Assembly (NCBI GenBank): GCA_964542245.1
Contig: CAZITU010000003.1
Coordinates: 17,888 to 81,887, forward strand
Length of the DNA stretch: 64,000 bases
From: an uncultured Nitrospirales bacterium
Lineage (GTDB): Bacteria; Nitrospirota; Nitrospiria; Nitrospirales; NS-4
Direction of reading: 5' to 3'
Positions 397 through 61,414 of the stretch are shown one piece after another (positions within the stretch are counted from its first letter, which is position 1; the number at the start of each line of letters is the position of its first letter). The position numbers and the translations under genes are program-made. Under the pieces are notes generated by a model. It had not been told where the DNA came from, ran no database searches, and saw nothing but the letters and a program-made list of their open reading frames with translations.

Positions 397-412
397 AGCA
401 AGTCAGATGCCG
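397..412 (-). promoter_or_regulatory. sigma-54-type promoter (-24 GG / -12 GC)
   Basis: Minus strand reads CGGCATCTGACTTGCT, with GG-N10-GC spacing and a TTGCT -12 element. It lies about 80 nt upstream of the ATG at 317. Confidence 0.6.
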
Positions 413-497
413 TATGGTTTAGGGGAACGTAACATGCTGTTTTACAATGCACTATTGCCCAGCCCATGAGGATTTTGAATGGGCGCCGCGATCAAAC

Positions 498-514
498 TGT
501 CTAGGAAATTGTCA
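498..514 (-). promoter_or_regulatory. proximal TGACA-N7-TGACA direct-repeat box (candidate enhancer-binding site)
   Basis: Plus strand TGTCTaggaaatTGTCA, 101 bp upstream of the 397-412 promoter element. Confidence 0.5.
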
Positions 515-609
515 TAAGACGAAAGTCCAACGATTTTGTCCGTTACTAATAATTACAATGAGTTGTGATGAAAAGAATGCTGAGATAGGGCTAATGATGG
601 CCCTAGAGC

Positions 610-626
610 TGTCAATTTCCCTGTCA
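610..626 (-). promoter_or_regulatory. distal TGACA-N7-TGACA direct-repeat box
   Basis: Plus strand TGTCAatttcccTGTCA, 112 bp from the proximal box. Confidence 0.5.
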
Positions 627-670
627 ACGAAGATTCACGTAAATCAAAGGTCTCGACCAATCAATAAGAA

Positions 671-700
671 GGCCCCCTCCCCGATTCCGGGGAGGGGGCC
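671..700 (-). terminator. intrinsic terminator of the 731-1573 gene
   Basis: Perfect 13-bp stem GGCCCCCTCCCCG / CGGGGAGGGGGCC with a 4-nt loop. On the minus strand it is followed by TTCTTATTGATT. It sits 30 nt after the stop codon. Confidence 0.75.
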
Positions 701-730
701 TCCAGATTCAAGGATCTTTGAGTGTTGAGC

Positions 731-1573
731 TTAGCCCTGCTCACGCCGCCGCCACAAGGCCAGCCCCGCCAGGCCGGATCCGAGTAACAGCAGGGACGCG
801 GGTTCCGGAACAACGGTATCAGGGAGTGCTCCTGCCCAGAACGATTGGCCCGTCGCCACTCCTTGTGGGCAAGTGAGGATCGAGCAATTGACACTCAAGA
901 GATGCAATCCAACCCATGCATCATTGGGTTGTGTTGGGAAGGCCCCCGTGCCATTACCGTTAAATGTCCAATGGAGGGCTGTCACGGGCGTGATAGCCGC
1001 GTTGTCCAAGGCGAGCCAGAAGACAAACGGTTCGTTGGGGGGGGGACCACTTACCAGAGGCGAAACCTGGAGGTCGAATGGGATTATCTGCGCACCGTCA
1101 GCGACGACGTTATCTTCGCCGACAGGATCCGAAAAGGTTCCGGGACTGCCTGACGGGAGTCTCCAAACAAAAACGAAATGTTGGTCCGGGGCATTATTGA
1201 TGTTATAGTTAAAATCAAGCTTGCCCACCTTTATGTCGCCTTTTATGCTCGTCTCAATCCTTAAGTAGGTGGCTTGCGTGATCCCTAAATCTATCTGCGC
1301 TTGCCCAGTATCAAACTGCTGTACCACAACCGTTCCCAAACAGTTTGAGTCGGTGGCGCAATCTGTCACCGGAGTTGCGCCGATGGCTGTACACCCTGTC
1401 CCGCCAAGATAACAATCTATGTTGAAGGTCAGCGTCTTTCCATCGCCGGAGATTATGGTGGTTGCGCCGGCATCCCTTGGCGCGACCATGTCGCTCACGC
1501 CGAAGAGCCCCAACGCCATCAGCATCACCAGGCCAAGAAATGTTATCCAGTGTTTAATGGGATTCTTTTTCAT
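731..1573 (-). CDS. PEP-CTERM sorting-signal protein (exosortase substrate)
   Basis: C-terminus VPEPASLLLLGSGLAGLALWRRREQG = PEP motif + TM helix + basic cluster. N-terminal signal peptide MKKNPIKHWITFLGLVMLMALG. Start moved to the ATG at 1573 (RBS GGTGAGGGA) because the longer ORF runs towards the promoter. Confidence 0.9.
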   Translation of the reverse strand: MKKNPIKHWITFLGLVMLMALGLFGVSDMVAPRDAGATTIISGDGKTLTFNIDCYLGGTGCTAIGATPVTDCATDSNCLGTVVVQQFDTGQAQIDLGITQATYLRIETSIKGDIKVGKLDFNYNINNAPDQHFVFVWRLPSGSPGTFSDPVGEDNVVADGAQIIPFDLQVSPLVSGPPPNEPFVFWLALDNAAITPVTALHWTFNGNGTGAFPTQPNDAWVGLHLLSVNCSILTCPQGVATGQSFWAGALPDTVVPEPASLLLLGSGLAGLALWRRREQG

Positions 1574-1655
1574 CGGATGTCCCTCACCATTTCGCGAACC
1601 CAACCCATTGGTTTTTTGGTTTTTTCCTCATCCTGGCACCCCGACTACATAATGA

Positions 1656-1671
1656 AGCAAACCCCATACCC
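1656..1671 (-). promoter_or_regulatory. sigma-54-type promoter
   Basis: Minus strand GGGTATGGGGTTTGCT, GG-N10-GC spacing, about 85 nt upstream of the ATG at 1573. Confidence 0.6.
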
Positions 1672-1756
1672 AATATGCAATTAACACGTAAGTTATTGAA
1701 ATTGAAAAATTAGAACCATCATCTTCAAAAGTAACCAAGCGATGGATATTGCAAAG

Positions 1757-1773
1757 TGTCAAGTTTTTTGTCA
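1757..1773 (-). promoter_or_regulatory. proximal TGACA-N7-TGACA box
   Basis: Plus strand TGTCAagtttttTGTCA, 100 bp upstream of the promoter element. Confidence 0.55.
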
Positions 1774-1867
1774 TGACCAGTAAGACCGTACTTTCATTAA
1801 ATAATTGATTAACAACACGTTCCAAATGATTGTCAGGCAATACCTGACACTTGGAGCTGTGAAAAGC

Positions 1868-1884
1868 TGTCACCTTTTTTGTCA
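1868..1884 (-). promoter_or_regulatory. distal TGACA-N7-TGACA box
   Basis: Plus strand TGTCAcctttttTGTCA, 111 bp from the proximal box. Confidence 0.55.
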
Positions 1885-1992
1885 CCTTATACTTACTTAG
1901 AGTAAAGACTCTTACCACATCTGTTTCTCATTTCCTCACTACCCCACCTTAACCTCCCCTTACAAAGGGGAGGAAGTATTTTAAAAAGAGAA

Positions 1993-2023
1993 GCCCCCTC
2001 CCCGTGAACATCGGAAAGGGGGC
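1993..2023 (-). terminator. intrinsic terminator of the 2054-2899 gene
   Basis: GCCCCCTCCCCG / CGGAAAGGGGGC imperfect stem. On the minus strand it is followed by TTCTCTTTTTAAAA. Confidence 0.7.
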
Positions 2024-2053
2024 CGCTCTAAAACGAAAAAGCTTCTGCTCGCG

Positions 2054-2899
2054 CTAGCCCTGCTTACGCCGCCGCCAGAACGCCAGTCCAGCCAGGCCTG
2101 AGCCTAGGAGAAGCAACGTGGCCGGTTCAGGGACCTCAGTCGGAACACAGATAGTCTGAGCCGCATTACACCCCGGTCTTCCAAAGAGTACACCCGAGCC
2201 GAACTCAAATCGGATATCGCGCAGATCGAACACGAAATTTGTCGGAAGATTCCCGGAGAGAGTGAGGTGAAACAGGACCGAATTTTCTATCGCCCATTGA
2301 CCCCCAAGGGCGTAAACTGGGGGGCTAGCTACCACCCCTCCTTGTGGTCCATCAAGACCCGCAGGGCCAGCCAAGTTACCAGTCGCAAACCTGAAATCTG
2401 TGGCAGCCTCAAGAGTATTCACCCAAATCTGTCCGGTAGGCGGAATCACGGCCTGGTTGAACAAAGGGGCACTACCGGTGTAACTACTTTCAAAGGAATA
2501 TCCCCATTCCGACGAGACATCAGCACCCGCACCCAGGGCAGGGCCTCCTGAACCGGTGGACGCAGATCCTGAACCTACCTCAGCCGTCCCTCCCGTTATG
2601 AAAAGACCACCGAGATCAAACTCCATCCCCACCAGGATTTGATTAGAACTGTTTTGGCTTAATGTAAAGCCTGAAAGTATCGAAGGCGCACCAGTTGAAG
2701 TGTTGGTAAGAAGGAGATCTAGCTGATTATTACCGGTCCACGTAAATATCGCCTGAGCATTAAATGGCTGAACAGTGGGGTTGAGCGGGTTCCAATTAAC
2801 GGTAAGTGTGGCTGCTGAAGCATCGCCCAAAGAGCCTATGACGAGCATCGCCAGCAGGCCAAGAAACGTTATCCATTGTTTCATTGGATTCATTTTCAT
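2054..2899 (-). CDS. PEP-CTERM sorting-signal protein
   Basis: C-terminus VPEPATLLLLGSGLAGLAFWRRRKQG. Signal peptide MKMNPMKQWITFLGLLAMLVIG. Start set at the ATG at 2899 (RBS GGTGAGGGA, as in the neighbouring gene), because the tracked start at 2989 would include the promoter element. Confidence 0.9.
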   Translation of the reverse strand: MKMNPMKQWITFLGLLAMLVIGSLGDASAATLTVNWNPLNPTVQPFNAQAIFTWTGNNQLDLLLTNTSTGAPSILSGFTLSQNSSNQILVGMEFDLGGLFITGGTAEVGSGSASTGSGGPALGAGADVSSEWGYSFESSYTGSAPLFNQAVIPPTGQIWVNTLEAATDFRFATGNLAGPAGLDGPQGGVVASPPVYALGGQWAIENSVLFHLTLSGNLPTNFVFDLRDIRFEFGSGVLFGRPGCNAAQTICVPTEVPEPATLLLLGSGLAGLAFWRRRKQG

Positions 2900-2971
2900 C
2901 GGGTTTCCCTCACCATTTGGGGAACCGTCCCATCGGTTTTTCCTTATCCCCTTACCCCGACTAAAGTATAA

Positions 2972-2987
2972 AGCAAGCCCTATACCC
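2972..2987 (-). promoter_or_regulatory. sigma-54-type promoter
   Basis: Minus strand GGGTATAGGGCTTGCT, GG-N10-GC spacing, about 75 nt upstream of the ATG at 2899. Confidence 0.6.
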
Positions 2988-3072
2988 AATATTCCAGCGA
3001 CCTACAACATATTGGAATTGAAACATTAGTAGCAGCATCACCAAAAGCGGTCCGATGGCACCCTTTTCAAAG

Positions 3073-3089
3073 TGTCAAGTTTTTTGTCA
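3073..3089 (-). promoter_or_regulatory. proximal TGACA-N7-TGACA box
   Basis: Plus strand TGTCAagtttttTGTCA, identical to 1757-1773, 101 bp upstream of the promoter element. Confidence 0.55.
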
Positions 3090-3182
3090 TGGCCGGCAGG
3101 ACCGCTCTTTCATTAACTAAGTGATTAACAATGCGTTTCAAAGAATTGTAGGGAAATACCTGGCCCGCGAAGCCGTAAAATC

Positions 3183-3199
3183 TGTCACCTTTTTTGTCA
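3183..3199 (-). promoter_or_regulatory. distal TGACA-N7-TGACA box
   Basis: Plus strand TGTCAcctttttTGTCA, identical to 1868-1884, 110 bp from the proximal box. Confidence 0.55.
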
Positions 3200-3307
3200 C
3201 CTTAGAGTTACGTAGAGTAAAGACTCTTACCACATCTGTTTCTCATCTCCTCGCTACCCCACTTTAACCTCCCCTTACAAAGGGGAGGAAGCATTTTAAA
3301 AAGAGAA

Positions 3308-3338
3308 GCCCCCTCCCCGTGAATCTCGGGAAGGGGGC
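3308..3338 (-). terminator. intrinsic terminator of the 3365-4096 gene
   Basis: 12-bp stem GCCCCCTCCCCG / CGGGAAGGGGGC with one mismatch and a 7-nt loop, followed on the minus strand by TTCTCTTTTTAAAA. Confidence 0.7.
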
Positions 3339-3364
3339 CTCCAGCAAAAGGAGCTGAGATGAAG

Positions 3365-4096
3365 TTACGCTTTGCTCTGCCGCCGACGCGCCCAGAACCC
3401 CAGCCCAGCCAAGCCGGAGCCAAGGAGAAGGAGTGACGCAGGCTCAGGCATCGGACCGGGAACTTGATGTTGGTGACCATCACCTGCCGGCGATCCAACC
3501 GACGCCCAGGGTGACCCTGGCGCCCCATCAAGGGCAGCCGCGTTCACGAATATAGGACCGAACGGCGATAGCCCGAACAAGATGTTCGACTGCTCATCGT
3601 GATCAATCTTCGGCGAAAAGAACCACGACGCCGTACCGCCACCTAAGCTGGTAAAAGCAGCCGGGTTAGCAGCCACCGTCACGGAGATAAGCGCATGCCC
3701 ATCAAACCCGTTTACCTCGCTCCCTATAACCAGATCACCCGCCGCAGCGGCAAGAAACGAAATCGAGCTAAACAAGGTAGGCAGGGTGATCGTGTACGAC
3801 CCGATATCATTCAACGACCCTGTCTCATTGAGCCCGGTCGTGGCCTCGAGCTGATACACATACAGGTAATCTGTAGGCGCCGCAACGCTTGAAACGAGTG
3901 TCGTGCCGGTTGACCCGACAGTTCCGGCATCCCCGGGCGCGTAGACCTCAAAATCCACCCGAATGGTGGCAGCCGGGAAGGTCGCATTGTGCAACACTGC
4001 TTCCCCGGACAAAATCGGCGCGGCAGAAGCAGGTCCGGCCATCCCTCCTAAGGCCATCACTACAATGAGGGCTATTACAAACATTGTCTTTTTCAT
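3365..4096 (-). CDS. PEP-CTERM sorting-signal protein
   Basis: C-terminus MPEPASLLLLGSGLAGLGFWARRRQSKA. Signal peptide MKKTMFVIALIVVMALGGMAGPASA. The ATG at 4096 has an AAGGAG RBS; the tracked start at 4135 is less likely. Confidence 0.88.
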   Translation of the reverse strand: MKKTMFVIALIVVMALGGMAGPASAAPILSGEAVLHNATFPAATIRVDFEVYAPGDAGTVGSTGTTLVSSVAAPTDYLYVYQLEATTGLNETGSLNDIGSYTITLPTLFSSISFLAAAAGDLVIGSEVNGFDGHALISVTVAANPAAFTSLGGGTASWFFSPKIDHDEQSNILFGLSPFGPIFVNAAALDGAPGSPWASVGSPAGDGHQHQVPGPMPEPASLLLLGSGLAGLGFWARRRQSKA

Positions 4097-4163
4097 TTTC
4101 CTGCTCCTTTTGTTATGCAAGCCCATTGTGAACATGTTTCAAATCCTGTTGGCCAAGTAACAA

Positions 4164-4179
4164 AGCAAGCCATATGCCT
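4164..4179 (-). promoter_or_regulatory. sigma-54-type promoter
   Basis: Minus strand AGGCATATGGCTTGCT, GG-N10-GC spacing. Confidence 0.6.
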
Positions 4180-4265
4180 CGTTTGTAAGTGATTCAGAAC
4201 GTATTGTTTAATAAACATAAATTCACACCATCAAATTTGAAAGGCCAAGCCTGCCAACATTGAAC

Positions 4266-4282
4266 TGTCAAATAAATTGTCA
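4266..4282 (-). promoter_or_regulatory. proximal TGACA-N7-TGACA box
   Basis: Plus strand TGTCAaataaatTGTCA, 102 bp upstream of the promoter element. Confidence 0.5.
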
Positions 4283-4374
4283 TGACAAAATTCCACCGTT
4301 TTCATGAGACTTATTGTTTTTCAATGAGTTGGAAATGACTGGAGGGAAAGACTGGAACTAAGGCAACTCGAAAT

Positions 4375-4392
4375 TTGTCAAATTCTCTGTCA
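4375..4392 (-). promoter_or_regulatory. distal TGACA-N8-TGACA box
   Basis: Plus strand TGTCAaaattctcTGTCA (8-nt spacer here), 109 bp from the proximal box. The flank GTCACCATTATACTACTTAG resembles the flanks of the other distal boxes. Confidence 0.45.
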
Positions 4393-4400: not shown

Positions 4401-5759
4401 CTACTTAGTCTTCTCCAGGCCATATTTTTGGATCAGCGCATGCAGGCCCTGCCGGGAGACTCCCAGCTCCTCCGCCGCCCGACTGATATTCCAGTTCTGG
4501 CAGATCAAAGCCTGCTGCACGACATCTTTCTCGACCTGGGCCTTCGCCTCCTTGAGCGTGGGGGACGATTTCATAGCCCCCTCCCATGGAATCTCCAAGT
4601 CTCCGGGTTGGACGACCTGGGCCTTCGCCATAATCACGGCCCGCTTGATTTTGTTTTGCAGCTCTCGCACATTGCCCGGCCACTGGTAGGCCCTGATGGC
4701 CTGGCGGGCCTCTTCAGATAAGCCGGTCACGCGCGAATGCAATTCGTCTCGGAATTGCGAGACGAACGCTTGGGCCAGGAGCAATACGTCCTCTCCCCGG
4801 TCACGCAACGATGGGACGGGGATCTCAACCACGCTGAGCCGGTAGAAAAGGTCTTCGCGGAAGAGCCCCTTCTCGATAGCCGCCTTCAGGTCGGTATTGG
4901 TGGCGGCGAGAACCCGCGTGTTCACCGCAATCTGTTCACGCCCCCCTACACGTTCCACCAGGCCGTCCTGGAGGAACCGCAGCAGCTTGACCTGCAGCCC
5001 GAGGGGCATCTCACCCACTTCGTCCAGCAGCAGCGTACCGCCGTCGGCGTACTCCACCTTTCCCTTCTGTTGCCGATGGGCGCCGGTAAAGGACCCCTTC
5101 TCATGGCCGAACAGCTCGCTCTCCAGGAGATTCTCAGGAATGGCGCCGCAATTGATGACGACGAACGGGCCTGCCTTCCGCGCGCTCAGGCGATGGAGGG
5201 AGCGGGCGACCAATTCCTTGCCGGTCCCGCTCTCCCCCAGGATCAAGACCGGCACGTCGGTGGTGGCCACCCGCCGGATCGTTTCAAAGAGGCGTTGCAT
5301 GGGAGGGCTGGAGCCGATGATCTCATAGAAGCTTTCTCCACTCTCTCGTTCCTGAAGCGCCCGGTACTCTTGCTCAAGCTGGTACAGGTATGCTGCCCGA
5401 TTGAGGACAACCTTCAGCACGTCAATCTGGACCGGCTTCTCCATGAAATCATAGGCCCCTCGCTGAATCGCCGCCATGGCATTGGTCCGCTCGTTGTTGC
5501 CGGTAATGACGATCACTTTGGCCATCCGGTCCACCGCCAGCAACTCTTCCAGCAGGGCCAGCCCTTCCACGGCTTCAGCCGGGTGCGGGGGAAGGCCCAG
5601 ATCCAACGTGACCAAGGAGGGACGTTCCCGCTTCATCACGGCAAGCGCTTCCCGCGGGGTCTCGGCCAAATGGACGATATGGGTGTCATCGAGCGCCCAT
5701 CGCATTTGATCCCGGATCTCCGGATCGTCTTCCACAACGAGCAACGTGGGCTTATCCAT
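4401..5759 (-). CDS. prsR: sigma-54-dependent response regulator, PEP-CTERM-box regulator PrsR family
   Basis: Receiver domain (LLVVEDD ... TLDLGLP), AAA+ sigma-54 interaction core (GESGTGKE Walker A, GSFTGA loop) and a C-terminal Fis-type HTH. Adjacent to prsK/epsI/exosortase. Confidence 0.9.
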   Translation of the reverse strand: MDKPTLLVVEDDPEIRDQMRWALDDTHIVHLAETPREALAVMKRERPSLVTLDLGLPPHPAEAVEGLALLEELLAVDRMAKVIVITGNNERTNAMAAIQRGAYDFMEKPVQIDVLKVVLNRAAYLYQLEQEYRALQERESGESFYEIIGSSPPMQRLFETIRRVATTDVPVLILGESGTGKELVARSLHRLSARKAGPFVVINCGAIPENLLESELFGHEKGSFTGAHRQQKGKVEYADGGTLLLDEVGEMPLGLQVKLLRFLQDGLVERVGGREQIAVNTRVLAATNTDLKAAIEKGLFREDLFYRLSVVEIPVPSLRDRGEDVLLLAQAFVSQFRDELHSRVTGLSEEARQAIRAYQWPGNVRELQNKIKRAVIMAKAQVVQPGDLEIPWEGAMKSSPTLKEAKAQVEKDVVQQALICQNWNISRAAEELGVSRQGLHALIQKYGLEKTK

Positions 5760-5774: not shown

Positions 5775-7967
5775 TTATCCCCCCTGACCACTATCCCCCC
5801 TCACCTTTATCCTCTCCCCCGAAGCGGGGGCGAGGGATTCATGGTCTGGTTGGTGGTGAGGGGCTTCTCGGTGAGCGGGGAGTCGCACAGTAAACCGGCT
5901 GCCCTTCCTTGGCTCGCTGTCCACTTCCAAAACACCCTGGTGCGCCTCGACGATCTTCCGGCATTGGTACAATCCAATGCCCAGACCCCGCCCCTTCGCC
6001 GTGCGAAATGGACGGAACAGCTTGGCAACCGTCGCCCGATCCATGCCGCATCCATTATCCTCCACCACCAACCGAACTGTTTCTCCCTCAGCCGTGGTTC
6101 TGACGGTAATGGCCCCTTCCGGATCCACCGCCTCCCGAGCATTCAGGACCAGATTCAGCAACACCTGTTGAAGTTGTTCCGGGTCGGCCTCAACCGGGGG
6201 GACCGGCTGGGTCTCGCAGAGCAGCCTGGCCCCGGCAGACCTGTCGAATCCTTTGAGGACCTCATCTACCATGGCATTGAGGTCCAAACGAACCCGCTTC
6301 GGCCGAGGGTCCTGCGAAAGGGCGGTAAGTTGCCCGATCAAGGTCGTCATCTTCTGGACCGTCGCGCGGACGGTGTCCATCGCAGCCCGCTGGAACGACG
6401 GATCGCTCCCGTGCCGCTCGGCATTCTGAGTGACGAGCGAAAGCGTCGCGGTGAAGTTCTTCAAGTCGTGGAGGAAAAACGTGGAATATTCGTAGAAAGC
6501 CTCCATCTCACGGCCTATGGCCAGCTTCTCGGCCAACAGCAAATGCTGGAGGCGGTCCGCCACCTGGGCCGCGATGGATCGGAGCAAATCCAGGTCCTGC
6601 TGGTCATAGGGCCTCCCTCCCGCGGTCGGACCCATCGTGATCCACCCGATCACCTGCCTGCCCGCTTTCAACGGGGTAATCAGCGCCGCGCCGGCATCCT
6701 TCATGACTTGGCCCAACGAAGGCGGCATTACCTCGTAAGAAGGAGAGCCGGCTGAGTCTGTGAAGACCAGCGGCCCATTCTGGCGCTCAATCCAAGCCTT
6801 TACTTCTCCGGCCCCCTCCAGCCGGTCCGGGGTGTCAGGGACGTTGTGCACACCAATCCTCGCCCAGGCATCCCGCTCCATATCCATCGTCACCCAGACG
6901 GAGAGTCGCCGAGGTCCCCAAACGCCCCGAAGGATCTGTGACACCCGCTCCGCGATCTGTTCGGGCGCGCCATGTGCCCCGATCGCCTCCGTCACCTCCA
7001 TCCATCGTACCCGGTAGTCGTACTTGTGGGGAAAGAAGTGCCGTTCCACAAACCTCCCGAGCGCCAGTCGCACATTGTGGGAAGAGAGTGTGAGCGCCAC
7101 ACCCAGGATCGCCATGAAAACGAAGAGCGTGCTCAGGGACACCTTCCCGGTAATACCTGAGTACCGAATCACCTGCGCCACCAACCCCATCCCTACCAGA
7201 ACCACGCCGACGACGAGGAAGGTCAACGAATCAGAGAGAACCCGCCGGGAGACGTAAATCTGGACATCCGGCAGAGGCCTACGCATCAATCCGTACCCGA
7301 CCAACGTGCACGCCGTAACCGATATGGCGCTGCTCAACCAGGCAAGTCCTGGGTGCCAGATCCTGTACAACAGCAGGTCAGCCGACTGGTAGATGAAGAA
7401 CACGCACAAGAGGCCCACACCGAAAACCGGAAACTTGAGGGACCAGCGCGTGGACTCGTCGGCATGGCGCAAGGTCTGCTCCAGGTTCGCAAGGATCAGG
7501 ACCTGCGCGACCAGATAGAGGCACGCGTACACCACACCGGAGAGACCCAAACCGACATAGGCTGTTGTCGAGTCCCACGGGAAAACCAGGGTGAACATTC
7601 GTTCGGAGCCCACAAGGGCCAGAAAGAGCACGGTCAGCAAGCCGGCTGCCGACAACCTGCCTCGCCAGTCTCGAAGCAGGGCCTGTGCATTCGACCGGGC
7701 GAAGGTGAGGCTGAACACCAACCAGCCCAGCGGCATGAGGATCTCGCCGGCCAGGGCCACACGTCGCCACCTCAACTCCTCCAGCGAGGAGTCGGCCATC
7801 AGACTGAACCCGTTCCCTGCCTGGGCCAAACCCAAAGAAAGCAGAGCAGCGGCCAACGCCCAGTGAACCGGCGTCCGCTGGAAGCGGGCCAGGACCAACC
7901 CGGCGAGGGCCAGGCAAAGAACGACGCTCAGGAAGGAAGGCAGGGAGTAGAGGTCTTGACTGGACAT
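5775..7967 (-). CDS. prsK: PEP-CTERM system histidine kinase PrsK family
   Basis: Long multi-TM N-terminal region, H-box FFLHDLKNF, HATPase motifs DNGCGM and GLGIGL. Start set at MSSQDLYSLP (7967), just after the epsI stop. The last ~30 codons run into a C-rich hairpin element. Confidence 0.88.
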   Translation of the reverse strand: MSSQDLYSLPSFLSVVLCLALAGLVLARFQRTPVHWALAAALLSLGLAQAGNGFSLMADSSLEELRWRRVALAGEILMPLGWLVFSLTFARSNAQALLRDWRGRLSAAGLLTVLFLALVGSERMFTLVFPWDSTTAYVGLGLSGVVYACLYLVAQVLILANLEQTLRHADESTRWSLKFPVFGVGLLCVFFIYQSADLLLYRIWHPGLAWLSSAISVTACTLVGYGLMRRPLPDVQIYVSRRVLSDSLTFLVVGVVLVGMGLVAQVIRYSGITGKVSLSTLFVFMAILGVALTLSSHNVRLALGRFVERHFFPHKYDYRVRWMEVTEAIGAHGAPEQIAERVSQILRGVWGPRRLSVWVTMDMERDAWARIGVHNVPDTPDRLEGAGEVKAWIERQNGPLVFTDSAGSPSYEVMPPSLGQVMKDAGAALITPLKAGRQVIGWITMGPTAGGRPYDQQDLDLLRSIAAQVADRLQHLLLAEKLAIGREMEAFYEYSTFFLHDLKNFTATLSLVTQNAERHGSDPSFQRAAMDTVRATVQKMTTLIGQLTALSQDPRPKRVRLDLNAMVDEVLKGFDRSAGARLLCETQPVPPVEADPEQLQQVLLNLVLNAREAVDPEGAITVRTTAEGETVRLVVEDNGCGMDRATVAKLFRPFRTAKGRGLGIGLYQCRKIVEAHQGVLEVDSEPRKGSRFTVRLPAHREAPHHQPDHESLAPASGERIKVRGDSGQGG

Positions 7968-7980
7968 GCTTCGTACTTTG

Positions 7981-8615
7981 TTACGTTGGTAAATGGCCGG
8001 CGAGCAGAGGGAACGTCGCCCGCATGAATTCGACCCCCATGGCAAACGCCTGCTCTGTTGATTGTCCTACCGGAACCGACACCCTGACCAAGGCTCCATC
8101 CGTTCGATTACGGGTCATGGCATCCCATACCAGGTAAAACTTCGCCCAATACTCGCTGGCGATGATACGGCCGCGATCCTGATACCAGTAGAGAATGACC
8201 TGCTTGTCCACACCTTTTTGAATCAAAACCTTGTTGATGGTGATGGGCGCTCCCCCAGAGACCGGAATAGCCATTTGTTCAGATTCTACGAATTGCCACC
8301 CCGCCCCCGGAAGGCAATTCTTGGGCGAGTGATACGTGGAACCTGTCCGCTGGCTCTGGTAATACCCCACATACAGATAGACCGGGACATTTCCCGGCTT
8401 CGCGACGTAGACCCGATTCATGTAATCAGTGAGCTTCAGGACATCCAGGAACTTCTGTTCAATGCCGAGTTCCCGGCCTCGCCAACGGTCACCGATGGTA
8501 AGCGGGAACTCAGTGAATGGTTTCTGCTCCAGAACCGGCTCAGCGCGTGAGAATGATTGCAGCAAGCCCCATGTGCTGACCAGCATCACAACCGCGACAA
8601 TGATCGGCCACTTCT

Positions 8616-8619
<4 letters not shown>
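7981..8619 (-). CDS. epsI: EpsI family exosortase-associated protein
   Basis: N-terminal anchor MKKWPIIVAVVML and the EpsI-like core YYQSQRTGSTYHSPKNCLPGAGW. ATGA overlap with the exosortase stop. Confidence 0.88.
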
Positions 8620-9494
<875 letters not shown>

Positions 9495-9496: not shown

Positions 9497-12304
9497 TCAG
9501 TTGACTCCGCTCCCCTTCGATAAGAGATATTCAGCGTGCAAATACAATTGCCCGCTTCGGCTGATCCAGCCCAGTTCCTTGGTGAATGTTCCAGGCCAAC
9601 CTAAGCGGATCGGACCGCGCTTGTCCGGATCAACAAACTTGTCACGGCTTAAGTTACCTGTCTCCCGATAGAACATTAGATCACGGAAAAGTCGCCTCGC
9701 AAAGTCCAGGTATTCCTTGGCCTTCTGTGAATCCTTGTCTTTGAGCATCATGTAACCGTAGGCAAATCCACCCGCTACATGGATATTATGCTGATAGGCT
9801 CCGCCTGTATTCTTTGACCTGTCATTTGGATCGGTGGAATAGGACAGTGTAAGCGGGGAATACTGTCCAGCCTGATCGGTCACGCCACCCACATAGGCGA
9901 AGTTCTTCAACCAATCCAGGGATCTGATCAAGTACGCCTCCAAAGCTCTGCCATCCAACCCGGCTGACGAGGCCTCATAGTGCAGCTCGGAGAGCGGCTC
10001 AAGCGGGTAGGTCAGAAACGTGATCACTGCCTTCCCAATGTAGCTCTTGTCCTTATACTGTCCGATGGTGATATACCCTTTGCCGCCACTTCCCGGCACG
10101 GTGTCGAGTTGCTCCGTATGCAGCAGGCTGTTGGCAAAGATCGTCAGCGCATCCCGCAAATGCTCGACATCTCCATCAATGCGGTACAGGTTCACCAGCA
10201 TCAGTATCGTCCATCCCTGGGAGCGGGTCTGATCAAAGGCCACGGGGGCTTGAGACACCTTTCTGTTCTCGAACCAGTACCGTCGTCCGGCCTTTGCCCC
10301 CGCTTCCGCCGCTTCCCGGTAGCGTGGGTTCCCGGTGAGCAGGTACCCTAGCGCGTACCCTCCATTCCATGTATGCGAGATAATGAGACCGGCACCCTGG
10401 GTGGAGCGGTGATGACCCTTTCCATCGCGGAGTTGCTCCCACCACCAGACCCCATCCAGGACGTTGGGATTCTGAGTGGGTTTGTTATGGATCTGATCCA
10501 GGTCGGCGCTGTGGTCGGTCATCTCAAGCGCAAGCGGCAGATAGCGAAAATCCCCCGAACGGATCAGATGCAGCCACATGATGTAAGACCAATCATAGTG
10601 AAGGGCGCTGTACGTGCCGACGCGATTGCCTCCCCAGGGAATTTCGCCGAAAGTTTCCAAGCCGTAAAGGTCCAGATTGAAGTGAAACCCTGGAGCTTGG
10701 GGTGCCGCCAGTCCACGCGTCTCCCGCAACCGTTCCAGAGTCACCCCATCGCTTGACACTTCGGGATCAACCAGCACCGCCCGAAAACGCTCGTATCGCT
10801 CTACCGCTTCCCGTGATGCCGCATCAAGGGAACGAAACCCTGCCGGGGCGATAAGCCCCCATGCCCGCGTGTCGGCATACCAACTCGGAGGAGCGAGAAG
10901 CAAAAGAGGGGTGGTGAGCAGCCCACCCTCAGCCAGCGGATTTCGTCCTCCTTGTGGCCAGAATGCCAGGAATACCTCATGAGTCTTATGCCACCCCCCG
11001 CTGAAGAAATAGCCGCCACGGCCGTATTCACCGACCTCACCCGACGTGACTCCAAGGGGCCACAAGCCAATTGCCGCTCCCGTCTCGCTGCTCTCCAAGC
11101 TCTTGGGATAGTTTTGCCAGAAGGCCCTCACCCCAACCCCTCCGCAACGGGTATCATCGCACAAGGACGCCCACCCATCGCTACGCTGTCCGGATTTCAC
11201 GATCTTGCCGTTGCGGGCCAACTGACGGTCAAAGTTCTTGCTCTCATCCATTGGATCTCGGACTGCGTGTGTCTGGGACAGCACCCACCGCCCACCGGGC
11301 GCTGTGGTTTCATCGTGCTCTGGAAACGCCACCCGGCGAACCGCCCCCATTTGCCAGGGGACATCCAGGTACAAGCCATCAAAAAAAGTATCGTTCACCG
11401 GGTGGTACGTCGAGAGACTGTTGCCGTTGTTTTCCAAGGTGATGGTCAGCTTCACATAGGATTTGTCGGCATAAAAGCTGATGCGCGCATCGAACTCCAG
11501 AGGTCGCCCTTCTGATCCAGGCCGTCCGTCTTTGGCGACCGGACGGGCATCACCGCCCATCCACGGCTTGCCGTCAGGAGCCTGAAAGGTCCCTCGCATT
11601 CGTACGACCGTCCGTAAGGGGCCGGCCTCTTCGATTGTTACCCCGACCGTTTTGGAAATCAGCGACCGAAAAGGACCTCCTACCTTCTCTACCCGCAGGC
11701 TTACTCGGTCAGAAAGAAGCGCCTGCCTGGGAGCACCTCCAGCGCCTCTCGTGTCCCCTGCGTTGATCATCCAAAGCTGCTCCAGGAAACCAACTCCCTG
11801 CTTGGGAATCCGCGCTGCAATCGGGCCGGTCACCACTTCCACGGCAGCGTCCTTGTCCGACACCTCGATTCCGGCCGGTAGCGGCGCCGGCGGTCCCTGC
11901 TGGAGGCGATAAGTCGCGGTGCCTCGTGGAGGCACATCAGCCTGAAAATCCACGAGCACCCAACGAATCGGCGCTTTGGCATCTTCGAGCCGCCCCCAAC
12001 GAGACAGCACCCGAAACTGGGCCGGCACCGGTTTCCCCTGGGCATCGGTCACCCGAAGCTGGTCCGTTGAGATAATCCCACTTTCCTTGGCCAACGGGAT
12101 TCCAGATGTCACTGGCTCGCCTTGACGTGGAACTTGGGCTGGATTCTGGACACGAAGGGGAACCTGAAGCGGCTGGACTACTGCCGTGTCCCATTGAGGC
12201 GCGGCCCGACTCGCCAGAGCGGAAGGAGCCCCGCAACCTACCGTTAGGCCCAGCGACAGAGCTAACGCAACCCGCCACGGACATTGAGGGCCCTTAGTCG
12301 GCAT
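9497..12304 (-). CDS. large exosortase-adjacent lipoprotein, function unknown (possibly an alpha/alpha-toroid polysaccharide lyase/hydrolase-like fold)
   Basis: Start moved to MPTKGPQCPWRVALALSLGLTVGC (lipobox-like LTVGC), because the tracked 5' extension overlaps asnB. Coding is confident. The fold assignment rests only on weak motif impressions (FWQNYPKSLE, NGGYALGYLLTGNPRYREAAE). Confidence 0.6.
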   Translation of the reverse strand: MPTKGPQCPWRVALALSLGLTVGCGAPSALASRAAPQWDTAVVQPLQVPLRVQNPAQVPRQGEPVTSGIPLAKESGIISTDQLRVTDAQGKPVPAQFRVLSRWGRLEDAKAPIRWVLVDFQADVPPRGTATYRLQQGPPAPLPAGIEVSDKDAAVEVVTGPIAARIPKQGVGFLEQLWMINAGDTRGAGGAPRQALLSDRVSLRVEKVGGPFRSLISKTVGVTIEEAGPLRTVVRMRGTFQAPDGKPWMGGDARPVAKDGRPGSEGRPLEFDARISFYADKSYVKLTITLENNGNSLSTYHPVNDTFFDGLYLDVPWQMGAVRRVAFPEHDETTAPGGRWVLSQTHAVRDPMDESKNFDRQLARNGKIVKSGQRSDGWASLCDDTRCGGVGVRAFWQNYPKSLESSETGAAIGLWPLGVTSGEVGEYGRGGYFFSGGWHKTHEVFLAFWPQGGRNPLAEGGLLTTPLLLLAPPSWYADTRAWGLIAPAGFRSLDAASREAVERYERFRAVLVDPEVSSDGVTLERLRETRGLAAPQAPGFHFNLDLYGLETFGEIPWGGNRVGTYSALHYDWSYIMWLHLIRSGDFRYLPLALEMTDHSADLDQIHNKPTQNPNVLDGVWWWEQLRDGKGHHRSTQGAGLIISHTWNGGYALGYLLTGNPRYREAAEAGAKAGRRYWFENRKVSQAPVAFDQTRSQGWTILMLVNLYRIDGDVEHLRDALTIFANSLLHTEQLDTVPGSGGKGYITIGQYKDKSYIGKAVITFLTYPLEPLSELHYEASSAGLDGRALEAYLIRSLDWLKNFAYVGGVTDQAGQYSPLTLSYSTDPNDRSKNTGGAYQHNIHVAGGFAYGYMMLKDKDSQKAKEYLDFARRLFRDLMFYRETGNLSRDKFVDPDKRGPIRLGWPGTFTKELGWISRSGQLYLHAEYLLSKGSGVN

Positions 12305-14162
12305 ACTGCTCCGCCCAGCTCGCAAGGACCACCAGAGCCCACACGGTTGAGGCATGGTCCGCCCGCCCGGCAAAATGCTCATCCACAATCCGCCGCAGGC
12401 CGGCCGGTTCAAACACCCCCAAGTCCGCCAGCGAGCCATGCAGCACACGATCCGTCACGACGGCCTGCAGATCGCCTCGAAACCATCGCTCCAAGGGAAC
12501 AGTGAATCCCTGCTTCGGACGGTCGAAGAAGCCCTGCGGGAATCGGTCTTTCATAGCATCTTTTAGAAGCAATTTACTTACGCCTGAGTTCACCTTGTAA
12601 GACGAGGGAAGGCCCAGCACCCATTCCACCAAATCGGAGTCCAAGAGGGGAGACCGACACTCCAGCGCATGCGCCATCGAAGTTCGATCCACCTTCACAA
12701 GCAGGTCCTCGGCCATATAAGTGACCAGATCCGTCGCCATCATCCGGTTGAGGGGATCGTCCATCGCGCTGTGATCGTACCGATCTGCCAACCAGCCGAG
12801 CGCACTCCTGCCGGTCCGGGACAGAAACCCGCTTGTGTAGAGCGATGCTTTCACTTCGGGGCCTGCCACCTGACGGAGAGCCGCATACCGTTCACCCGGC
12901 GACCGGACAAGTAGGGCGGCCGCCTTGCCTATCCTCCGAAGGGGACGAGGGACAGGCACCGCTGCCATACGGGCGCCTATCCGTGCCATCCAGCGGGGGA
13001 TAAACGAGGCTGCTTCCAGAGCGCGTCCCGTGTAGTACCAGGAATAGCCTCCGAACAGCTCATCGCCCCCATCCCCCGTCAAGGCCACCGTCACCGATTT
13101 TCGCGTCAATTGCGAGAGGTACCACGTCGGCAAGGCCGAAGAATCTGCAAAAGGCTCTCCGAAGTGGGCGACAAGCTCATCCAGGATACCGACGCTGTCA
13201 GGTTCCAGAACGTACTCGTGATGATCGGTGCCAAAGTGTTGGGCAATCGTTCTTGCGTAAGGCAGCTCGCTGTAGTCCTCCTCAGGAAACCCGATCGAGA
13301 AGGTCTTCACCGGCTGTTGAGACAATTCAGCCATGAAGGACAGCACGGTGCTGGAGTCCACCCCTCCGCTCAAAAAGCAGCCGATCGGAACATCGCTGAC
13401 CATCCGTAGAGCCGTCGCAGTTCGGAGCCGGCGGACCAGTTCCTGCTTGGCTTCCTCCCAACCCATAGGCTCTTGAGCAGAGCGCTGGGGCGCCCAATAG
13501 GGTTCGTTACGCAGCCCACCCGATTTAACCTGCAAGTAATGCCCCGCCTCTAATTTCCTGACGTGACGAAAGATCGTCCGTGGGGCCGGGATATAACCCA
13601 GCGTCAGGTACTGATCGAGCGCCAGATCATCGAGCTCGCGGGACAGATCGGGCACCGCCATCAGAGCCTGGAGTTCAGACGCAAACAGAAACATGCCCTG
13701 ATGAGTCGCGTAGTAGAGAGGCTTCTTCCCCACCCGGTCGCGCGCCAGCAAGAGGGTTTGGGCACGCTCGTCCCAGACGGCAAAAGCGAACATCCCTTTT
13801 AAGTCCTTCAGGCAGGCCGTTCCTGCTTCTTGGTAGAGATAAACAATAACTTCCGTATCGGTCTTTGTATGGAAGCGATGCCCGCGGGACAGTAACGCTT
13901 CTCGTAGCTGCTGATAACCGTAGATCTCGCCGTTGAAGGTGATCATGACGGAGCCGTCGTCATTGCCCAGAGGTTGCAGACCGGTCGCTAAGTCAATGAT
14001 CCGGAGCCGCCGATGACCGAGACTGACCGTGCGCGAGGGATTCACGTAGTGCCCCTCCTCATCGGGACCACGATGAATAAGGCGTTCCGTCATCGCTCTG
14101 ACCAACTCGGGCCGCTCAAGCGATCGACCGGTGAGGGACATCATGCCGGCGATCCCGCACAT
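12294..14162 (-). CDS. asparagine synthase (glutamine-hydrolysing) family amidotransferase, exosortase-locus type
   Basis: MCGIAG N-terminal nucleophile Cys2 and PP-loop SGGVDSS. Position next to exosortase genes matches the exosortase-A-associated amidotransferase family. Confidence 0.88.
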   Translation of the reverse strand: MCGIAGMMSLTGRSLERPELVRAMTERLIHRGPDEEGHYVNPSRTVSLGHRRLRIIDLATGLQPLGNDDGSVMITFNGEIYGYQQLREALLSRGHRFHTKTDTEVIVYLYQEAGTACLKDLKGMFAFAVWDERAQTLLLARDRVGKKPLYYATHQGMFLFASELQALMAVPDLSRELDDLALDQYLTLGYIPAPRTIFRHVRKLEAGHYLQVKSGGLRNEPYWAPQRSAQEPMGWEEAKQELVRRLRTATALRMVSDVPIGCFLSGGVDSSTVLSFMAELSQQPVKTFSIGFPEEDYSELPYARTIAQHFGTDHHEYVLEPDSVGILDELVAHFGEPFADSSALPTWYLSQLTRKSVTVALTGDGGDELFGGYSWYYTGRALEAASFIPRWMARIGARMAAVPVPRPLRRIGKAAALLVRSPGERYAALRQVAGPEVKASLYTSGFLSRTGRSALGWLADRYDHSAMDDPLNRMMATDLVTYMAEDLLVKVDRTSMAHALECRSPLLDSDLVEWVLGLPSSYKVNSGVSKLLLKDAMKDRFPQGFFDRPKQGFTVPLERWFRGDLQAVVTDRVLHGSLADLGVFEPAGLRRIVDEHFAGRADHASTVWALVVLASWAEQYAD

Positions 14163-28940: not shown

Positions 28941-30272
28941 TCAACTGCTGCCTGTATGCCCATAGACAATTCCCCCGCTTCTCTGTTCCTCTGTTGTCCG
29001 GCAAGGCATCGCAAGCCGGATGCATGCGACGCTCAACGCGAACACAATGTAAAGCAGCCCGCTGTACGCCTGAGACAGGAAGAACCCGCCTACAATGAAT
29101 CCCCATAAGCTGATCTCCAGAGCAGCGGCGAGAGAGATCACATTTTTCAGGCGGGAGTGTTCGGTTGTCGCCGGGACAACGCCTCGGATACGACGAAGCT
29201 CTTTGATTGTCAGGGCAAACATCATCAGGAATACAGCCAGGCCGGCAACGCCCAGATCAACTCCAACCTGGAGAAACGAGTTGTGGGCGGCTTTCCACCT
29301 GCCCTCACCCCCATGGGATAAGCCTTCCGCGATCTCAAATCCGTTAATGCCGACTCCCCATGGATGAGTCGCCATGAGCACAAGCCCCGTTTTCCATACC
29401 TCCGTTCGTCCGGTGCCCGTGCGTTCCAGTTCCGTCTTCGGATCCCAGATCGCCTCCATACGCTCCCAGTAATCACTGCCCGCCAGTCCTCCGAACACCA
29501 GCAGCGCAATCCCGGTGACAAGGACCTTGGTCGTTCGGCTTAAAGCGCTCTGCCACAATATCAGAGCACCGACTACCAGCAAGGCAAGCAAGCCGCCGCG
29601 TGACCGCGTGAGCACGACACCGTACAGGCAGGCGGAAGCCATGCCGAGGAGGGCGATCCTTAAGATTACTCCCGATGTTGAGAAAAGATAGAGAACCAAG
29701 GGAAGTACCATAACCAGCAACATGGCAAGGTCATTGGCGTCGTATGTCTCGGACTCCGCGTTAAAGCGCGCGCCTCCCATTTCACCAGTGAGAAGACCCA
29801 ATATCACCAAACCAGCCATCCCCAGACAGCAAACCCAGACCAGGCGACGCATGTCCTGAAGCGATCTGGACCAGAAGATGACAAGCAGGAAGAGCAGGAT
29901 AGTCTTCCAATATTTTTCGGTGACAAACTCGAAGCTACGCCTAGGCCATACGCTAAGGGGAACGGTGACGATACCCAAGCCCAGGAGTATCAGCACATAC
30001 CGCGCCTGTTTTATCTCTAAAGGGATCTTGTCCCATAACGAACCGGGCGCAATCACCCAAGCAAGCAACGCGAGCCCACCAGTCACCAAGCCAATCCTTA
30101 AGGGCGCCAAGGCCGGGAGCACCTCCTGAATCCGACCGACAGCCACCAGCGTGAAAAGCAACAAAAATACCATCCCCCAGGTAAACGGAGCGCGGTCCCG
30201 TATAGCCGGGAAACTCGAAGGCATCGGCTCAGCAAGTGTCCCTACATGACGCGCGCCCGCTGCATTCCTCAT
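28941..30272 (-). CDS. O-antigen ligase/polymerase-like (Wzy_C) membrane protein
   Basis: About 10-12 TM helices with a periplasmic loop ...WDPKTELERTGTGRTEVWKTG...HNSFLQV, typical of Wzy/WaaL-like proteins. Exosortase loci carry such a putative O-glycosylation ligase. Confidence 0.75.
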   Translation of the reverse strand: MRNAAGARHVGTLAEPMPSSFPAIRDRAPFTWGMVFLLLFTLVAVGRIQEVLPALAPLRIGLVTGGLALLAWVIAPGSLWDKIPLEIKQARYVLILLGLGIVTVPLSVWPRRSFEFVTEKYWKTILLFLLVIFWSRSLQDMRRLVWVCCLGMAGLVILGLLTGEMGGARFNAESETYDANDLAMLLVMVLPLVLYLFSTSGVILRIALLGMASACLYGVVLTRSRGGLLALLVVGALILWQSALSRTTKVLVTGIALLVFGGLAGSDYWERMEAIWDPKTELERTGTGRTEVWKTGLVLMATHPWGVGINGFEIAEGLSHGGEGRWKAAHNSFLQVGVDLGVAGLAVFLMMFALTIKELRRIRGVVPATTEHSRLKNVISLAAALEISLWGFIVGGFFLSQAYSGLLYIVFALSVACIRLAMPCRTTEEQRSGGIVYGHTGSS

Positions 30273-51050: not shown

Positions 51051-51737
51051 CTAGCGCGATTCCCGGTCATGCTCGGTCATGTAAAGGGCCAGCCGGAGCC
51101 GGTCCGAGAGTCCGAGCTTGCGGAAGACTGCGGTCAGGTGGGCCTTGACGGTTGCTTCTGTGACGTCAAGTTTGTTGGCGATTTCCTTGTTGCTGGCGCC
51201 ATCGCCGATCAGAGAGGCGACTGCGCGCTCGCGTGGGGTTAAGCGTTCGAGCCGACTGTCGGAAACGGCGGGTGAGTTGAGCAGTCGGTGTGTGCTGAGG
51301 GCTGCAAGCTCTTCAAGAAGGTGGGGGACGACACTGCGCCCCACCCAAATCTGGTTCGCCTGGACCATTTCCACGGCTTTTCCGATGAGAAAGGGAGGCA
51401 TGCCCTTCTCGCAGTAGCCCTTCGCTCCCGCCTTGAGTGCGGTCACCCCCTCCTTCTCATTGGGGGCGTCGGTGAGGAGGATGATCTTTGTCTTGGGATT
51501 CAGCTTCTGGATGGCCGGGAGGTTGCCGATTCCACCAAAATGACGCCAGGCGAGGTCGAGAAGCAAGATGGCAGGATTCAAACCGCCGAGGCTCTGTTCC
51601 AGAGCCGGACGGTCCACCACCTCATGCATGGCAAACTTTCCCTGAAGCCCTTCTCTCCACTGCTTGCGCGATCCCGCGTCCAGTCCGGCAATGAGAACCA
51701 GCGCAGTCGTGCTTCCTCGATCCGGCATCCCGCTCAA
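51051..51737 (-). CDS. NarL/FixJ-type response regulator (receiver + LuxR HTH)
   Basis: Receiver with ILLLDLA acceptor region and KIILLT. C-terminal LTPRERAVASLIGDGASNKEIANKLDVTEATVKAHLTAVFRKLG. Confidence 0.88.
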   Translation of the reverse strand: MSGMPDRGSTTALVLIAGLDAGSRKQWREGLQGKFAMHEVVDRPALEQSLGGLNPAILLLDLAWRHFGGIGNLPAIQKLNPKTKIILLTDAPNEKEGVTALKAGAKGYCEKGMPPFLIGKAVEMVQANQIWVGRSVVPHLLEELAALSTHRLLNSPAVSDSRLERLTPRERAVASLIGDGASNKEIANKLDVTEATVKAHLTAVFRKLGLSDRLRLALYMTEHDRESR

Positions 51738-60973: not shown

Positions 60974-61414
60974 TTACTTGCCCTCGAAGGTCCGCTCGTA
61001 GAGAATCGTAGTCCAGGCCTCCTCTTCCGTAATCGCGGTCCCGATCAGCGGCACCATGCCGGTCCCCGGGCTCCCGTTCTTGATCACCCAGAACATCTCG
61101 CCGTCCGTCCGGTTCTTGTGGAACTTCGGGTTCGTGAAGTTCCGCGGGGAGGGATTCAGGATCGCACCGGCCGGGCCGTCCCCCTTGCCGCTGATCCCAT
61201 GGCAATTGAAGCAGGTCCCCTTGCCTTCGAAAATCGCCTTGCCCTTGGCGATGTTTTCCGGGGTCTTCGCAATCGGATTCTTCATCGCCTTGGCCTTACC
61301 ACGCTGATCACCAGGCACGCGGGAAACCGTCGGGTCCTTCTCTTCGGCGTAAACCGTCACGGCCACCATCGCACACACCGACAATGCTATCACTCCTGAC
61401 TTCAGATAACCCAT
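60974..61414 (-). CDS. class I c-type cytochrome (secreted)
   Basis: Signal peptide, haem-binding CFNCH, distal Met in GTGMVP. ATG at 61414 follows AAGGAGGA. Confidence 0.88.
   Translation of the reverse strand: MGYLKSGVIALSVCAMVAVTVYAEEKDPTVSRVPGDQRGKAKAMKNPIAKTPENIAKGKAIFEGKGTCFNCHGISGKGDGPAGAILNPSPRNFTNPKFHKNRTDGEMFWVIKNGSPGTGMVPLIGTAITEEEAWTTILYERTFEGK

Follow-up and report, generated by a model that had tools for sequence, protein, structure and literature searches.

Predicted sigma-54 promoters and paired PrsR-type boxes upstream of four PEP-CTERM genes in a Nitrospirales bacterium

We analysed a 64-kb stretch of DNA from an uncultured Nitrospirales bacterium (the window) together with its parent contig (L087, retrieved via the identical PrsR protein). 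Four PEP-CTERM genes at the left end of the window, which encode exported surface proteins and lie next to the genes for the sensor histidine kinase PrsK and the sigma-54-dependent response regulator PrsR, share one upstream architecture, in which a sigma-54 promoter motif is followed further upstream by two 17-bp boxes at nearly fixed distances. Taken as a whole, the explanation that we consider probable is that the four genes form separate transcription units, each with a predicted sigma-54 promoter, that the two boxes, centred near -120 and -231, are upstream activator sites of PrsR, and that the box, TGACAR-N5-TTGACA, represents the Nitrospirota-lineage spelling of TGTCGG-N5-TTTACA, the motif 1 of Haft et al. 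(2006), and not a new kind of regulator. New here are the variant spelling and the rigid inter-box distance of 110-112 bp, common to two other lineages. Having two boxes is not new, since multiple boxes are common in the family and repeats were noted by Haft et al. (2006).

Organisms that form biofilms and flocs, among them the nitrifiers of wastewater treatment, commonly have PEP-CTERM/exosortase systems, whose regulation is known almost solely from one 2006 prediction. The locus described here offers four natural replicates of the cis-architecture, with exact coordinates for promoter, both boxes and terminator, and could serve as a design template for the first PrsR binding experiments; a specialist would find it unsurprising.

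Promoters and boxes of the four units

The four genes (units 1 to 4, counted from the window edge, which cuts the first; table 1) lie on the minus strand, and their products terminate in a classical PEP-CTERM sorting signal (...VPEPASLLLLGSGLAGL..RRR). All three proteins that are complete in the window pass the PF07589 cut-off. The genes are preceded by 304-480 nt of intergenic DNA, in keeping with the arrangement of Haft et al. (2006), a single-gene operon with more than 200 nt of non-coding DNA upstream. In units 2 to 4, where another gene follows within the window, a strong terminator-like hairpin stands behind the gene. The genes for PrsK, PrsR, EpsI and XrtA adjoin one another directly upstream of the PEP-CTERM genes on the same strand, and PrsR and PrsK score above the cut-offs of their families, TIGR02915 and TIGR02916. 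An earlier note on this DNA had taken the PEP-CTERM genes for single-gene units that have sigma-54 promoters and stand in a PrsK/PrsR context, and this reading was borne out.

The promoter pattern GGYAY-N5-TTGCT occurs five times in the 64 kb, against 0.43 expected, and four of these matches precede the four genes. With the predicted start set 12 nt past the C of the -12 GC, transcription would begin near 386, 1645, 2961 and 4153, and the leaders would be 70, 72, 62 and 57 nt long in units 1 to 4. The fifth match (GGTATTTTTGTTGCT, 30157-30171, minus strand) lies just within the 5' end of ORF (open reading frame) 28941-30272 and has no PrsR-type box upstream; it may be due to chance or be the target of another activator.

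Read on the gene strand, the box pattern TGACA-N7-TGACA (TGTCA-N7-TGTCA on the plus strand) has seven exact matches in the 64 kb, all upstream of PEP-CTERM genes. Shuffled sequences led us to expect 0.06, and none of 100 shuffles reached seven. Allowing one mismatch added an eighth, the proximal box of unit 1, which has TGTCT on the plus strand and the half-site AGACA on the gene strand. The recurrence of the box before PEP-CTERM genes, as claimed in the earlier note, is thus real, while the N8 spacer that it assigned to one box is not: all eight have N7, and the odd one reads TGACA-N7-AGACA.

The spacing of the elements is fixed, again as had been claimed. From promoter start to proximal box start we counted 101, 101, 101 and 102 bp in units 1 to 4, and from proximal to distal box 112, 111, 110 and 110 bp; the corresponding spacers are 86, 86, 86 and 87 nt and 95, 94, 93 and 93 nt long. 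Units 2 and 3 are recent paralogous copies that align throughout (60-73% identity in the spacers) and amount to roughly one observation, not two independent ones. The promoter-proximal spacers of units 1 and 4, when compared with those of units 2 and 3, show 31-37% identity against 25-29% for shuffled sequence, which is near random, and yet the spacing is kept to 1-2 bp. This argues that the fixed spacing is not merely a product of recent copying.

The box and its relatives

Haft et al. (2006) describe a 17-nt motif 1 with the 3' end TTTACA, sometimes repeated, as the predicted site of an activator, which they then identified as PrsR. The spacer between it and the downstream sigma-54 motif 2 measures 62.8 +/- 10.6 nt (maximum 92), and both motifs were found in Proteobacteria only. 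In the window, the boxes keep the 17-nt frame and the gene orientation of this published motif, occur twice per unit, and stand off from the promoter by a spacer of 86-87 nt, inside the placement range of 32-92 nt. Their spelling differs. Canonical boxes read TGTCGG at positions 1-6 and TTTACA at positions 12-17, compared with TGACA(A/G) and TTGACA in the window, so that the TTTACA end is missing and 8-10 of the 12 canonical positions match. The earlier note had presented the boxes as an extra detail beyond Haft et al. (2006), which does not hold, given that they share frame, orientation and position with motif 1.

The likeness to the published regulon extends to the single-gene PEP-CTERM operons, the long upstream regions, an oriented 17-nt box that is sometimes repeated, a spacer below the published maximum, leaders of about 57-72 nt, where the published mean is 71, and the presence of PrsK, PrsR and PrsT on one contig. 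The window departs from it in its spelling, in always having two boxes at 110-112 bp, in its Nitrospirota host, and in an IHF-like site that lies between the boxes instead of between box and promoter.

We recovered TGTCGG-N5-TTTACA and TGGCAY-N5-TTGCA before PEP-CTERM genes beside PrsR homologues in multiple taxa. Canonical boxes were found in, among others, Geobacter, Krumholzibacteriales, a betaproteobacterium, Thermodesulfobacteriaceae, Planctomycetia, Malonomonas and a Nitrospirae metagenome-assembled genome; their left half has the variants TGTCAG, TGTCAA and TGTCGA, and they start 79-133 nt ahead of the sigma-54 GG. The form TGNCA-N7-TGNCA was essentially absent from 80 loci around GTDB PrsR homologues, because these homologues are at most 55% identical and go with the canonical spelling. 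The closest PrsR relatives belong to Nitrospirota (Nitrospiraceae, Nitrospira; 60-81% identity), and contigs with a closer PrsR retain the synteny of prsK, prsR and PEP-CTERM gene.

Upstream of the PEP-CTERM genes of these relatives, the box is conserved in changing forms. The locus L083 (PrsR identity 80%) has the perfect dyad TGTCAAAACCAATGACA plus TGAAAATTTTATTGACA, and L081 (81%) has the dyad pentamers with an N8 spacer (TGTCA-N8-TGACA) plus TGAAACTTTTATTGACA. L085 (70%) carries the direct form TGACAGAAAAATTGACA and a weaker CGAAAAATGATTTGACA, 110 bp apart. At a PrsR identity of 66%, L090 has TGACGGAAAACTCGACA, Ca. Nitrospira bockiana (L089) has CGACGGAAGAGTTGACA and TGCCGCTCTGTTTGACA, L093 has the canonical TGTCAGAGAAGTTTACA, and L092 combines TGACAGGCTACTTGACA with the canonical TGTCTAAACTCTTTACA before one PEP-CTERM gene. 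The box of L159, described below, has the direct form as in the window. These intermediate and mixed forms in Nitrospirota relatives link the canonical spelling to that of the window. The simplest reading would be a single site family, TGWCRR-N5-TTKACA, read by orthologous PrsR proteins, with the window lineage fixed on TGACAR...TTGACA. Across the series of canonical, dyad and direct forms, positions 1, 2, 4 and 15-17 are constant and positions 3, 5, 6 and 14 variable, which points to the positions that PrsR likely reads.

The window box is a direct repeat of TGACA with a 12-bp period and also a near-palindrome, TGNCAA-N5-TTGNCA. Apart from its centre, the pentamer TGNCA equals its own reverse complement. 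A direct repeat of it therefore also reads as a near-dyad, and the repeat geometry is no argument against PrsR. In TGACAA-N5-TTGACA the pairs (1,17), (2,16), (4,14), (5,13) and (6,12) are symmetric and the pair (3,15) never is; the count is five of six pairs in five of the eight boxes and four of six in the other three. The earlier note had taken the direct repeat to imply a binder other than PrsR, an argument weakened by this near-palindrome and by relatives that carry dyad, direct and canonical forms. Substitutions at two positions, 3 and 14, of a near-palindromic site would have produced the direct-repeat look. Canonical and variant boxes almost always hold one orientation to the promoter, the one inverted copy being in L032, and this polarity may reflect unequal roles of the two half-sites. 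Between the boxes of unit 2 only, there is a perfect palindrome TGTCAGG-N5-CCTGACA (1831-1849), in which the box pentamers form a dyad with N9 spacing; it is partly retained in L159 and lost in unit 3.

Activation by PrsR and alternative readings

PrsR consists of a receiver domain, an AAA+ domain with a GSFTGA loop and the Walker A motif GESGTGKE, and a C-terminal Fis-type helix-turn-helix (HTH); the nearest relatives with a solved structure, Aquifex NtrC1 and the DNA-binding domain of NtrC4, have Fis-like HTH domains. In the mechanism that we propose, a signal would cause PrsK to phosphorylate PrsR, and PrsR dimers on the boxes would assemble an active AAA+ ring. Bending or looping of the DNA, possibly helped by an IHF-like protein between the boxes, would carry the ring to the closed sigma-54 holoenzyme complex, ATP hydrolysis by the ring would open the promoter, and each gene would be insulated by its own terminator. 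What the sequences show are the elements and their spacing, the identities of the genes, the homology between the box and its canonical counterpart, and its conservation among relatives; we infer that PrsR binds, that expression depends on RpoN and starts downstream of the predicted -24/-12 elements, and that IHF may have a role. RpoN dependence and a mapped -24/-12 start have been shown for a single PEP-CTERM gene, pepA of Aquincola (PMC9850573).

This arrangement shares features with known enhancers of sigma-54 promoters. The NtrC enhancers of glnAp2 are 17-bp dyads, TGCACC-N5-GGTGCA, bound by Fis-type HTH dimers. In the window, too, the site is bipartite, 17 bp long and AT-rich at its centre, the activator belongs to the NtrC family and has a Fis-type HTH, and the proximal site lies at about -120. 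Strong NtrC sites, however, are about 32 bp apart (three helical turns), compared with 110-112 bp here, and the window site is not a clean dyad, since no copy is symmetric at positions 3 and 15. The NifA upstream activator sequence is TGT-N10-ACA. The canonical PrsR box follows the same logic with a TGT-N11-ACA core, whereas in the window box the left TGT has become TGA, this core is lost, and symmetry is found at positions 1, 2, 4, 5 and 6.

Several points weigh against activation by PrsR through these boxes. The literature search found no experiment on PrsR binding to any box in any organism. Of the 12 conserved positions of the canonical consensus, 2-4 are spelled differently in the window box, and the pentamer centre is A in 16 of 16 half-sites on the gene strand, an asymmetry that a simple two-fold dimer model fails to explain. 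The distance of 110-112 bp corresponds to about 10.5 turns of B-DNA and would put the boxes on opposite faces if the DNA is straight. The same distance is seen in L085 (110 bp) and L159 (111 bp); in other lineages with multiple boxes it is 76, 81, 87, 121, 122, 126, 134 or 139 bp, and we found no common helical phase among these values across the family. Covariation of the recognition helix with box type is also inconsistent. The helix reads SRQGLH in the window and SRPTLY/H in canonical-box lineages, and the residue after SRQ/SRP (G, N, A or T) trends with box spelling, but L090 and L093 are counter-examples, the latter having SRQTLH with canonical boxes.

A regulator that binds direct repeats, either of the OmpR/PhoB type or the NarL/LuxR-type protein encoded at 51051-51737, might occupy the boxes instead of PrsR, and would co-regulate the PEP-CTERM genes or regulate them in its place. 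TGACA on both sides of the boxes, with the invariant A on the gene strand, would suit such a protein, and the NarL-family regulator lies in the same exopolysaccharide (EPS) locus and has a weak match to the XrtB-associated EpsA. The Pho box bound by PhoB is built from direct repeats of CTGTCAT, which recur every 11 bp and lie at the -35 of sigma-70 promoters; the TGTCA of the plus strand, likewise arranged head to tail on one strand, resembles that repeat. The window repeat, however, has a period of 12 bp in all eight boxes, compared with 10-11 bp in OmpR/PhoB sites; its TGTCA is on the strand opposite to the gene, and it lies at -120 and -231 of sigma-54 promoters instead of over the -35 of a sigma-70 promoter. 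No PhoB-type gene was linked to the boxes, and we rejected the Pho-box assignment on period, strand and position. In frame, position and orientation, moreover, the box continues the canonical PrsR box, a dyad or canonical form takes its place in close relatives, and a sigma-54 promoter needs an AAA+ activator, which the adjoining prsR encodes. We therefore regard a direct-repeat binder as quite improbable. Still harder to reconcile with the four units is the reading of the TTGACA halves as sigma-70 -35 elements, with the repeats being UP-like or promoter elements and not activator sites, to which we give almost no credence. TTGACA is the sigma-70 -35 consensus, and a ninth box elsewhere in the window does sit in a promoter of the form TTGACA-N17-TATATT (11 of 12 positions). 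Yet none of the eight boxes has a -10 hexamer at 16-18 bp on the gene strand, a promoter scan gave two weak plus-strand matches in 4.5 kb against 3.4 expected, and between the boxes and the start codons, 190-300 bp away, lie good sigma-54 promoters. The missing -10 partners rule this reading out for the four units, and it holds for the ninth box only.

It is also unlikely, in our view, that only the proximal box is functional and that the distal box and the rigid spacing are relics of tandem duplication or gene conversion of one cassette. Units 2 and 3 do align throughout, the L159 cassette is similar to them, and common descent is visible in the inter-box spacers of units 1, 3 and 4, with a similarity of up to 0.49 against 0.26 for shuffled sequence; many canonical PrsR targets have a single box. 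The distal boxes of units 1 and 4, however, are perfect (12 of 12 positions of our consensus) within far more diverged flanks, and the degenerate box of unit 1 is the proximal one. In L085 the spacer sequence is different, and the distal box, 110 bp away from a weaker proximal one, is still perfect; multi-box upstream regions recur across phyla (L015, L020, L027, L032 and L092).

IHF-like sites, the cassette and the neighbourhood

The IHF consensus WATCAANNNNTTR has three matches in the window against 0.97 expected, and only one of them, in unit 2, falls in the four units. The earlier note had placed IHF-like matches between the boxes of units 2 and 3. The first is exact; the second has one mismatch and fails the exact consensus search, and units 1 and 4 have no good match to the consensus. 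Both sites lie between the two boxes and not between box and promoter, in the spacer that is better conserved than the others. Among 24 PrsR/sigma-54 upstream regions of all lineages (the window and loci L005-L159), the consensus was found in exact form eight times against 0.58 expected, and none of 1000 shuffles reached eight. It often lies beyond the promoter-nearest box instead of between box and promoter, and in the window, L090, L092 and L007 it is on the upstream side of the strong box nearest to the promoter. No IHF/HU gene was found in the 64-kb window. An architectural bend between or beside the boxes is plausible but unproven.

Similar cassettes do not go with similar proteins. Units 2 and 3 have the most similar cassettes, and apart from signal peptide and tail their proteins show no relationship; units 1 and 2 encode proteins with 49% identity and have diverged cassettes. 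Spread or homogenisation of the cassette is therefore independent of the coding regions. Units 2 and 3 share a block that extends from the upstream terminator across the signal-peptide codons, an extent that points to recombination between PEP-CTERM tails and signal peptides.

A metagenome scan for two boxes followed by GG-N10-GC gave at least 119 matches, nearly all of them tandem or minisatellite repeats in unrelated DNA, and is unusable as an enrichment statistic. L159 (Ga0209399_10000145) was the sole true relative among the matches listed. Its cassette of about 260 bp (about 7120-7480, minus strand) comprises the distal box, a 94-nt spacer, the proximal box, an 86-nt spacer and the sigma-54 promoter, and is about 80-85% identical to units 2 and 3, estimated by eye across the alignment. 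It precedes an ORF (6373-7197, minus strand) for a GH16 glycoside hydrolase with a signal peptide and without a PEP-CTERM tail, and the predicted regulon would thereby include secreted enzymes that are not PEP-CTERM proteins. The regulon as predicted here thus extends beyond Proteobacteria and beyond PEP-CTERM genes.

The ninth box shares 16 of 17 positions with the proximal boxes of units 2 and 3. With its TTGACA half it supplies the -35 of the sigma-70-like promoter mentioned above (61496-61524), which lies upstream of a gene for a cytochrome-579-like c-type cytochrome (60974-61417, minus strand), and there is no sigma-54 promoter at this box. Whether it belongs to the regulon is uncertain. 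NtrC sites that overlap a sigma-70 promoter repress that promoter, and by analogy with NtrC at glnAp1, PrsR might repress or co-regulate the cytochrome-579-like gene. A more elaborate scheme, which we consider doubtful though conceivable, would join these elements into a fixed-geometry double enhancer, in which two PrsR dimers 110-112 bp apart, drawn together by an IHF-like bend in the conserved inter-box spacer, seed the AAA+ ring and the half-site A provides polarity. The enhancer would be part of a portable module of about 260 bp that stands before unrelated secreted-protein genes (two PEP-CTERM genes and the GH16 gene of L159), and PrsR would also repress the cytochrome gene via the same box over a sigma-70 promoter.

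Table 1. Features of the four units and their surroundings. Positions refer to the window unless L087 is named.
Feature	Position	Strand	Remarks
PEP-CTERM gene, unit 1	1-316 (5' part, cut by edge); full gene L087 15479-16237	- (window)	252 aa; PF07589 match on parent contig
Sigma-54 -24/-12 promoter, unit 1	397-411	-	GGCATCTGACTTGCT; predicted start near 386
Proximal box, unit 1	498-514	-	TGACAATTTCCTAGACA; one degenerate half-site; centre about -120
Distal box, unit 1	610-626	-	TGACAGGGAAATTGACA; centre about -232
Terminator-like hairpin after unit 2 gene	668-703	-	intrinsic-terminator-like; 16 pairs, 13 G-C
PEP-CTERM gene, unit 2	731-1573	-	280 aa; PF07589 29.9 bits (cut-off 20.7)
Sigma-54 promoter, unit 2	1656-1670	-	GGTATGGGGTTTGCT
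Proximal box, unit 2	1757-1773	-	TGACAAAAAACTTGACA; centre -120
IHF-consensus match, unit 2	1798-1810	-	AATCAATTATTTA; between the two boxes
Distal box, unit 2	1868-1884	-	TGACAAAAAAGGTGACA; centre -231
Terminator-like hairpin after unit 3 gene	1992-2024	-	hairpin scan
PEP-CTERM gene, unit 3	2054-2899	-	281 aa; TIGR02595 29.8 bits (cut-off 16); PF07589 34.4 bits
Sigma-54 promoter, unit 3	2972-2986	-	GGTATAGGGCTTGCT
Proximal box, unit 3	3073-3089	-	TGACAAAAAACTTGACA; centre -120
IHF-like match, unit 3	3114-3126	-	AATCACTTAGTTA; one mismatch; between the two boxes
Distal box, unit 3	3183-3199	-	TGACAAAAAAGGTGACA; centre -230
Terminator-like hairpin after unit 4 gene	3304-3342	-	hairpin scan
PEP-CTERM gene, unit 4	3365-4096	-	243 aa; PF07589 24.2 bits (cut-off 20.7)
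Sigma-54 promoter, unit 4	4164-4178	-	GGCATATGGCTTGCT
Proximal box, unit 4	4266-4282	-	TGACAATTTATTTGACA; centre -121
Distal box, unit 4	4376-4392	-	TGACAGAGAATTTGACA; centre -231; 8 nt downstream of prsR stop codon
prsR	4401-5759	-	sigma-54-dependent response regulator; TIGR02915 602.9 bits (cut-off 502.6)
prsK	5775-8045	-	sensor histidine kinase; TIGR02916 389.5 bits (cut-off 300)
EpsI and XrtA-type exosortase	7981-9494	-	TIGR02914 150.5 bits; TIGR03109 226.8 bits (cut-off 208)
Ninth box	61519-61535	-	AGACAAAAAACTTGACA
PEP-CTERM-associated CAAX protease	L087 16342-17019	+	TIGR03008; just left of the window, same contig
PrsT	L087 17159-19471	-	TIGR02917 429 bits (cut-off 312)

On the parent contig the PEP-CTERM cluster stops after these four genes. 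The CAAX protease and PrsT come next, followed by a TIGR03790-family protein. PrsT, which the earlier note had correctly placed outside the window, lies about 2 kb past its left edge, and the PrsK/PrsR/PrsT trio is complete on the contig. On the other side, a long XrtA-type EPS locus continues beyond the prsR, prsK, EpsI and exosortase genes. An ORF of 983 aa (9497-12448, minus strand) between the exosortase and an amidotransferase was considered as PrsT and rejected, as it has no TPR or PrsT match. It had zero NCBIfam matches, carries only a PcRGLX-like (rhamnogalacturonan-lyase-like) beta-sandwich domain, and relatives have other genes at its position.

Beside the main terminator between consecutive units there is a second hairpin, CCTCCCCTTACAAAGGGGAGG, at 1953-1973, with an equivalent in unit 3 near 3268-3290. 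It scores as a plus-strand terminator and may be a bidirectional insulator. Two tRNA genes lie near the right end of the window, tRNA-Lys(TTT) at 61722-61797 (minus strand) and tRNA-Ala(GGC) at 63342-63417 (plus strand).

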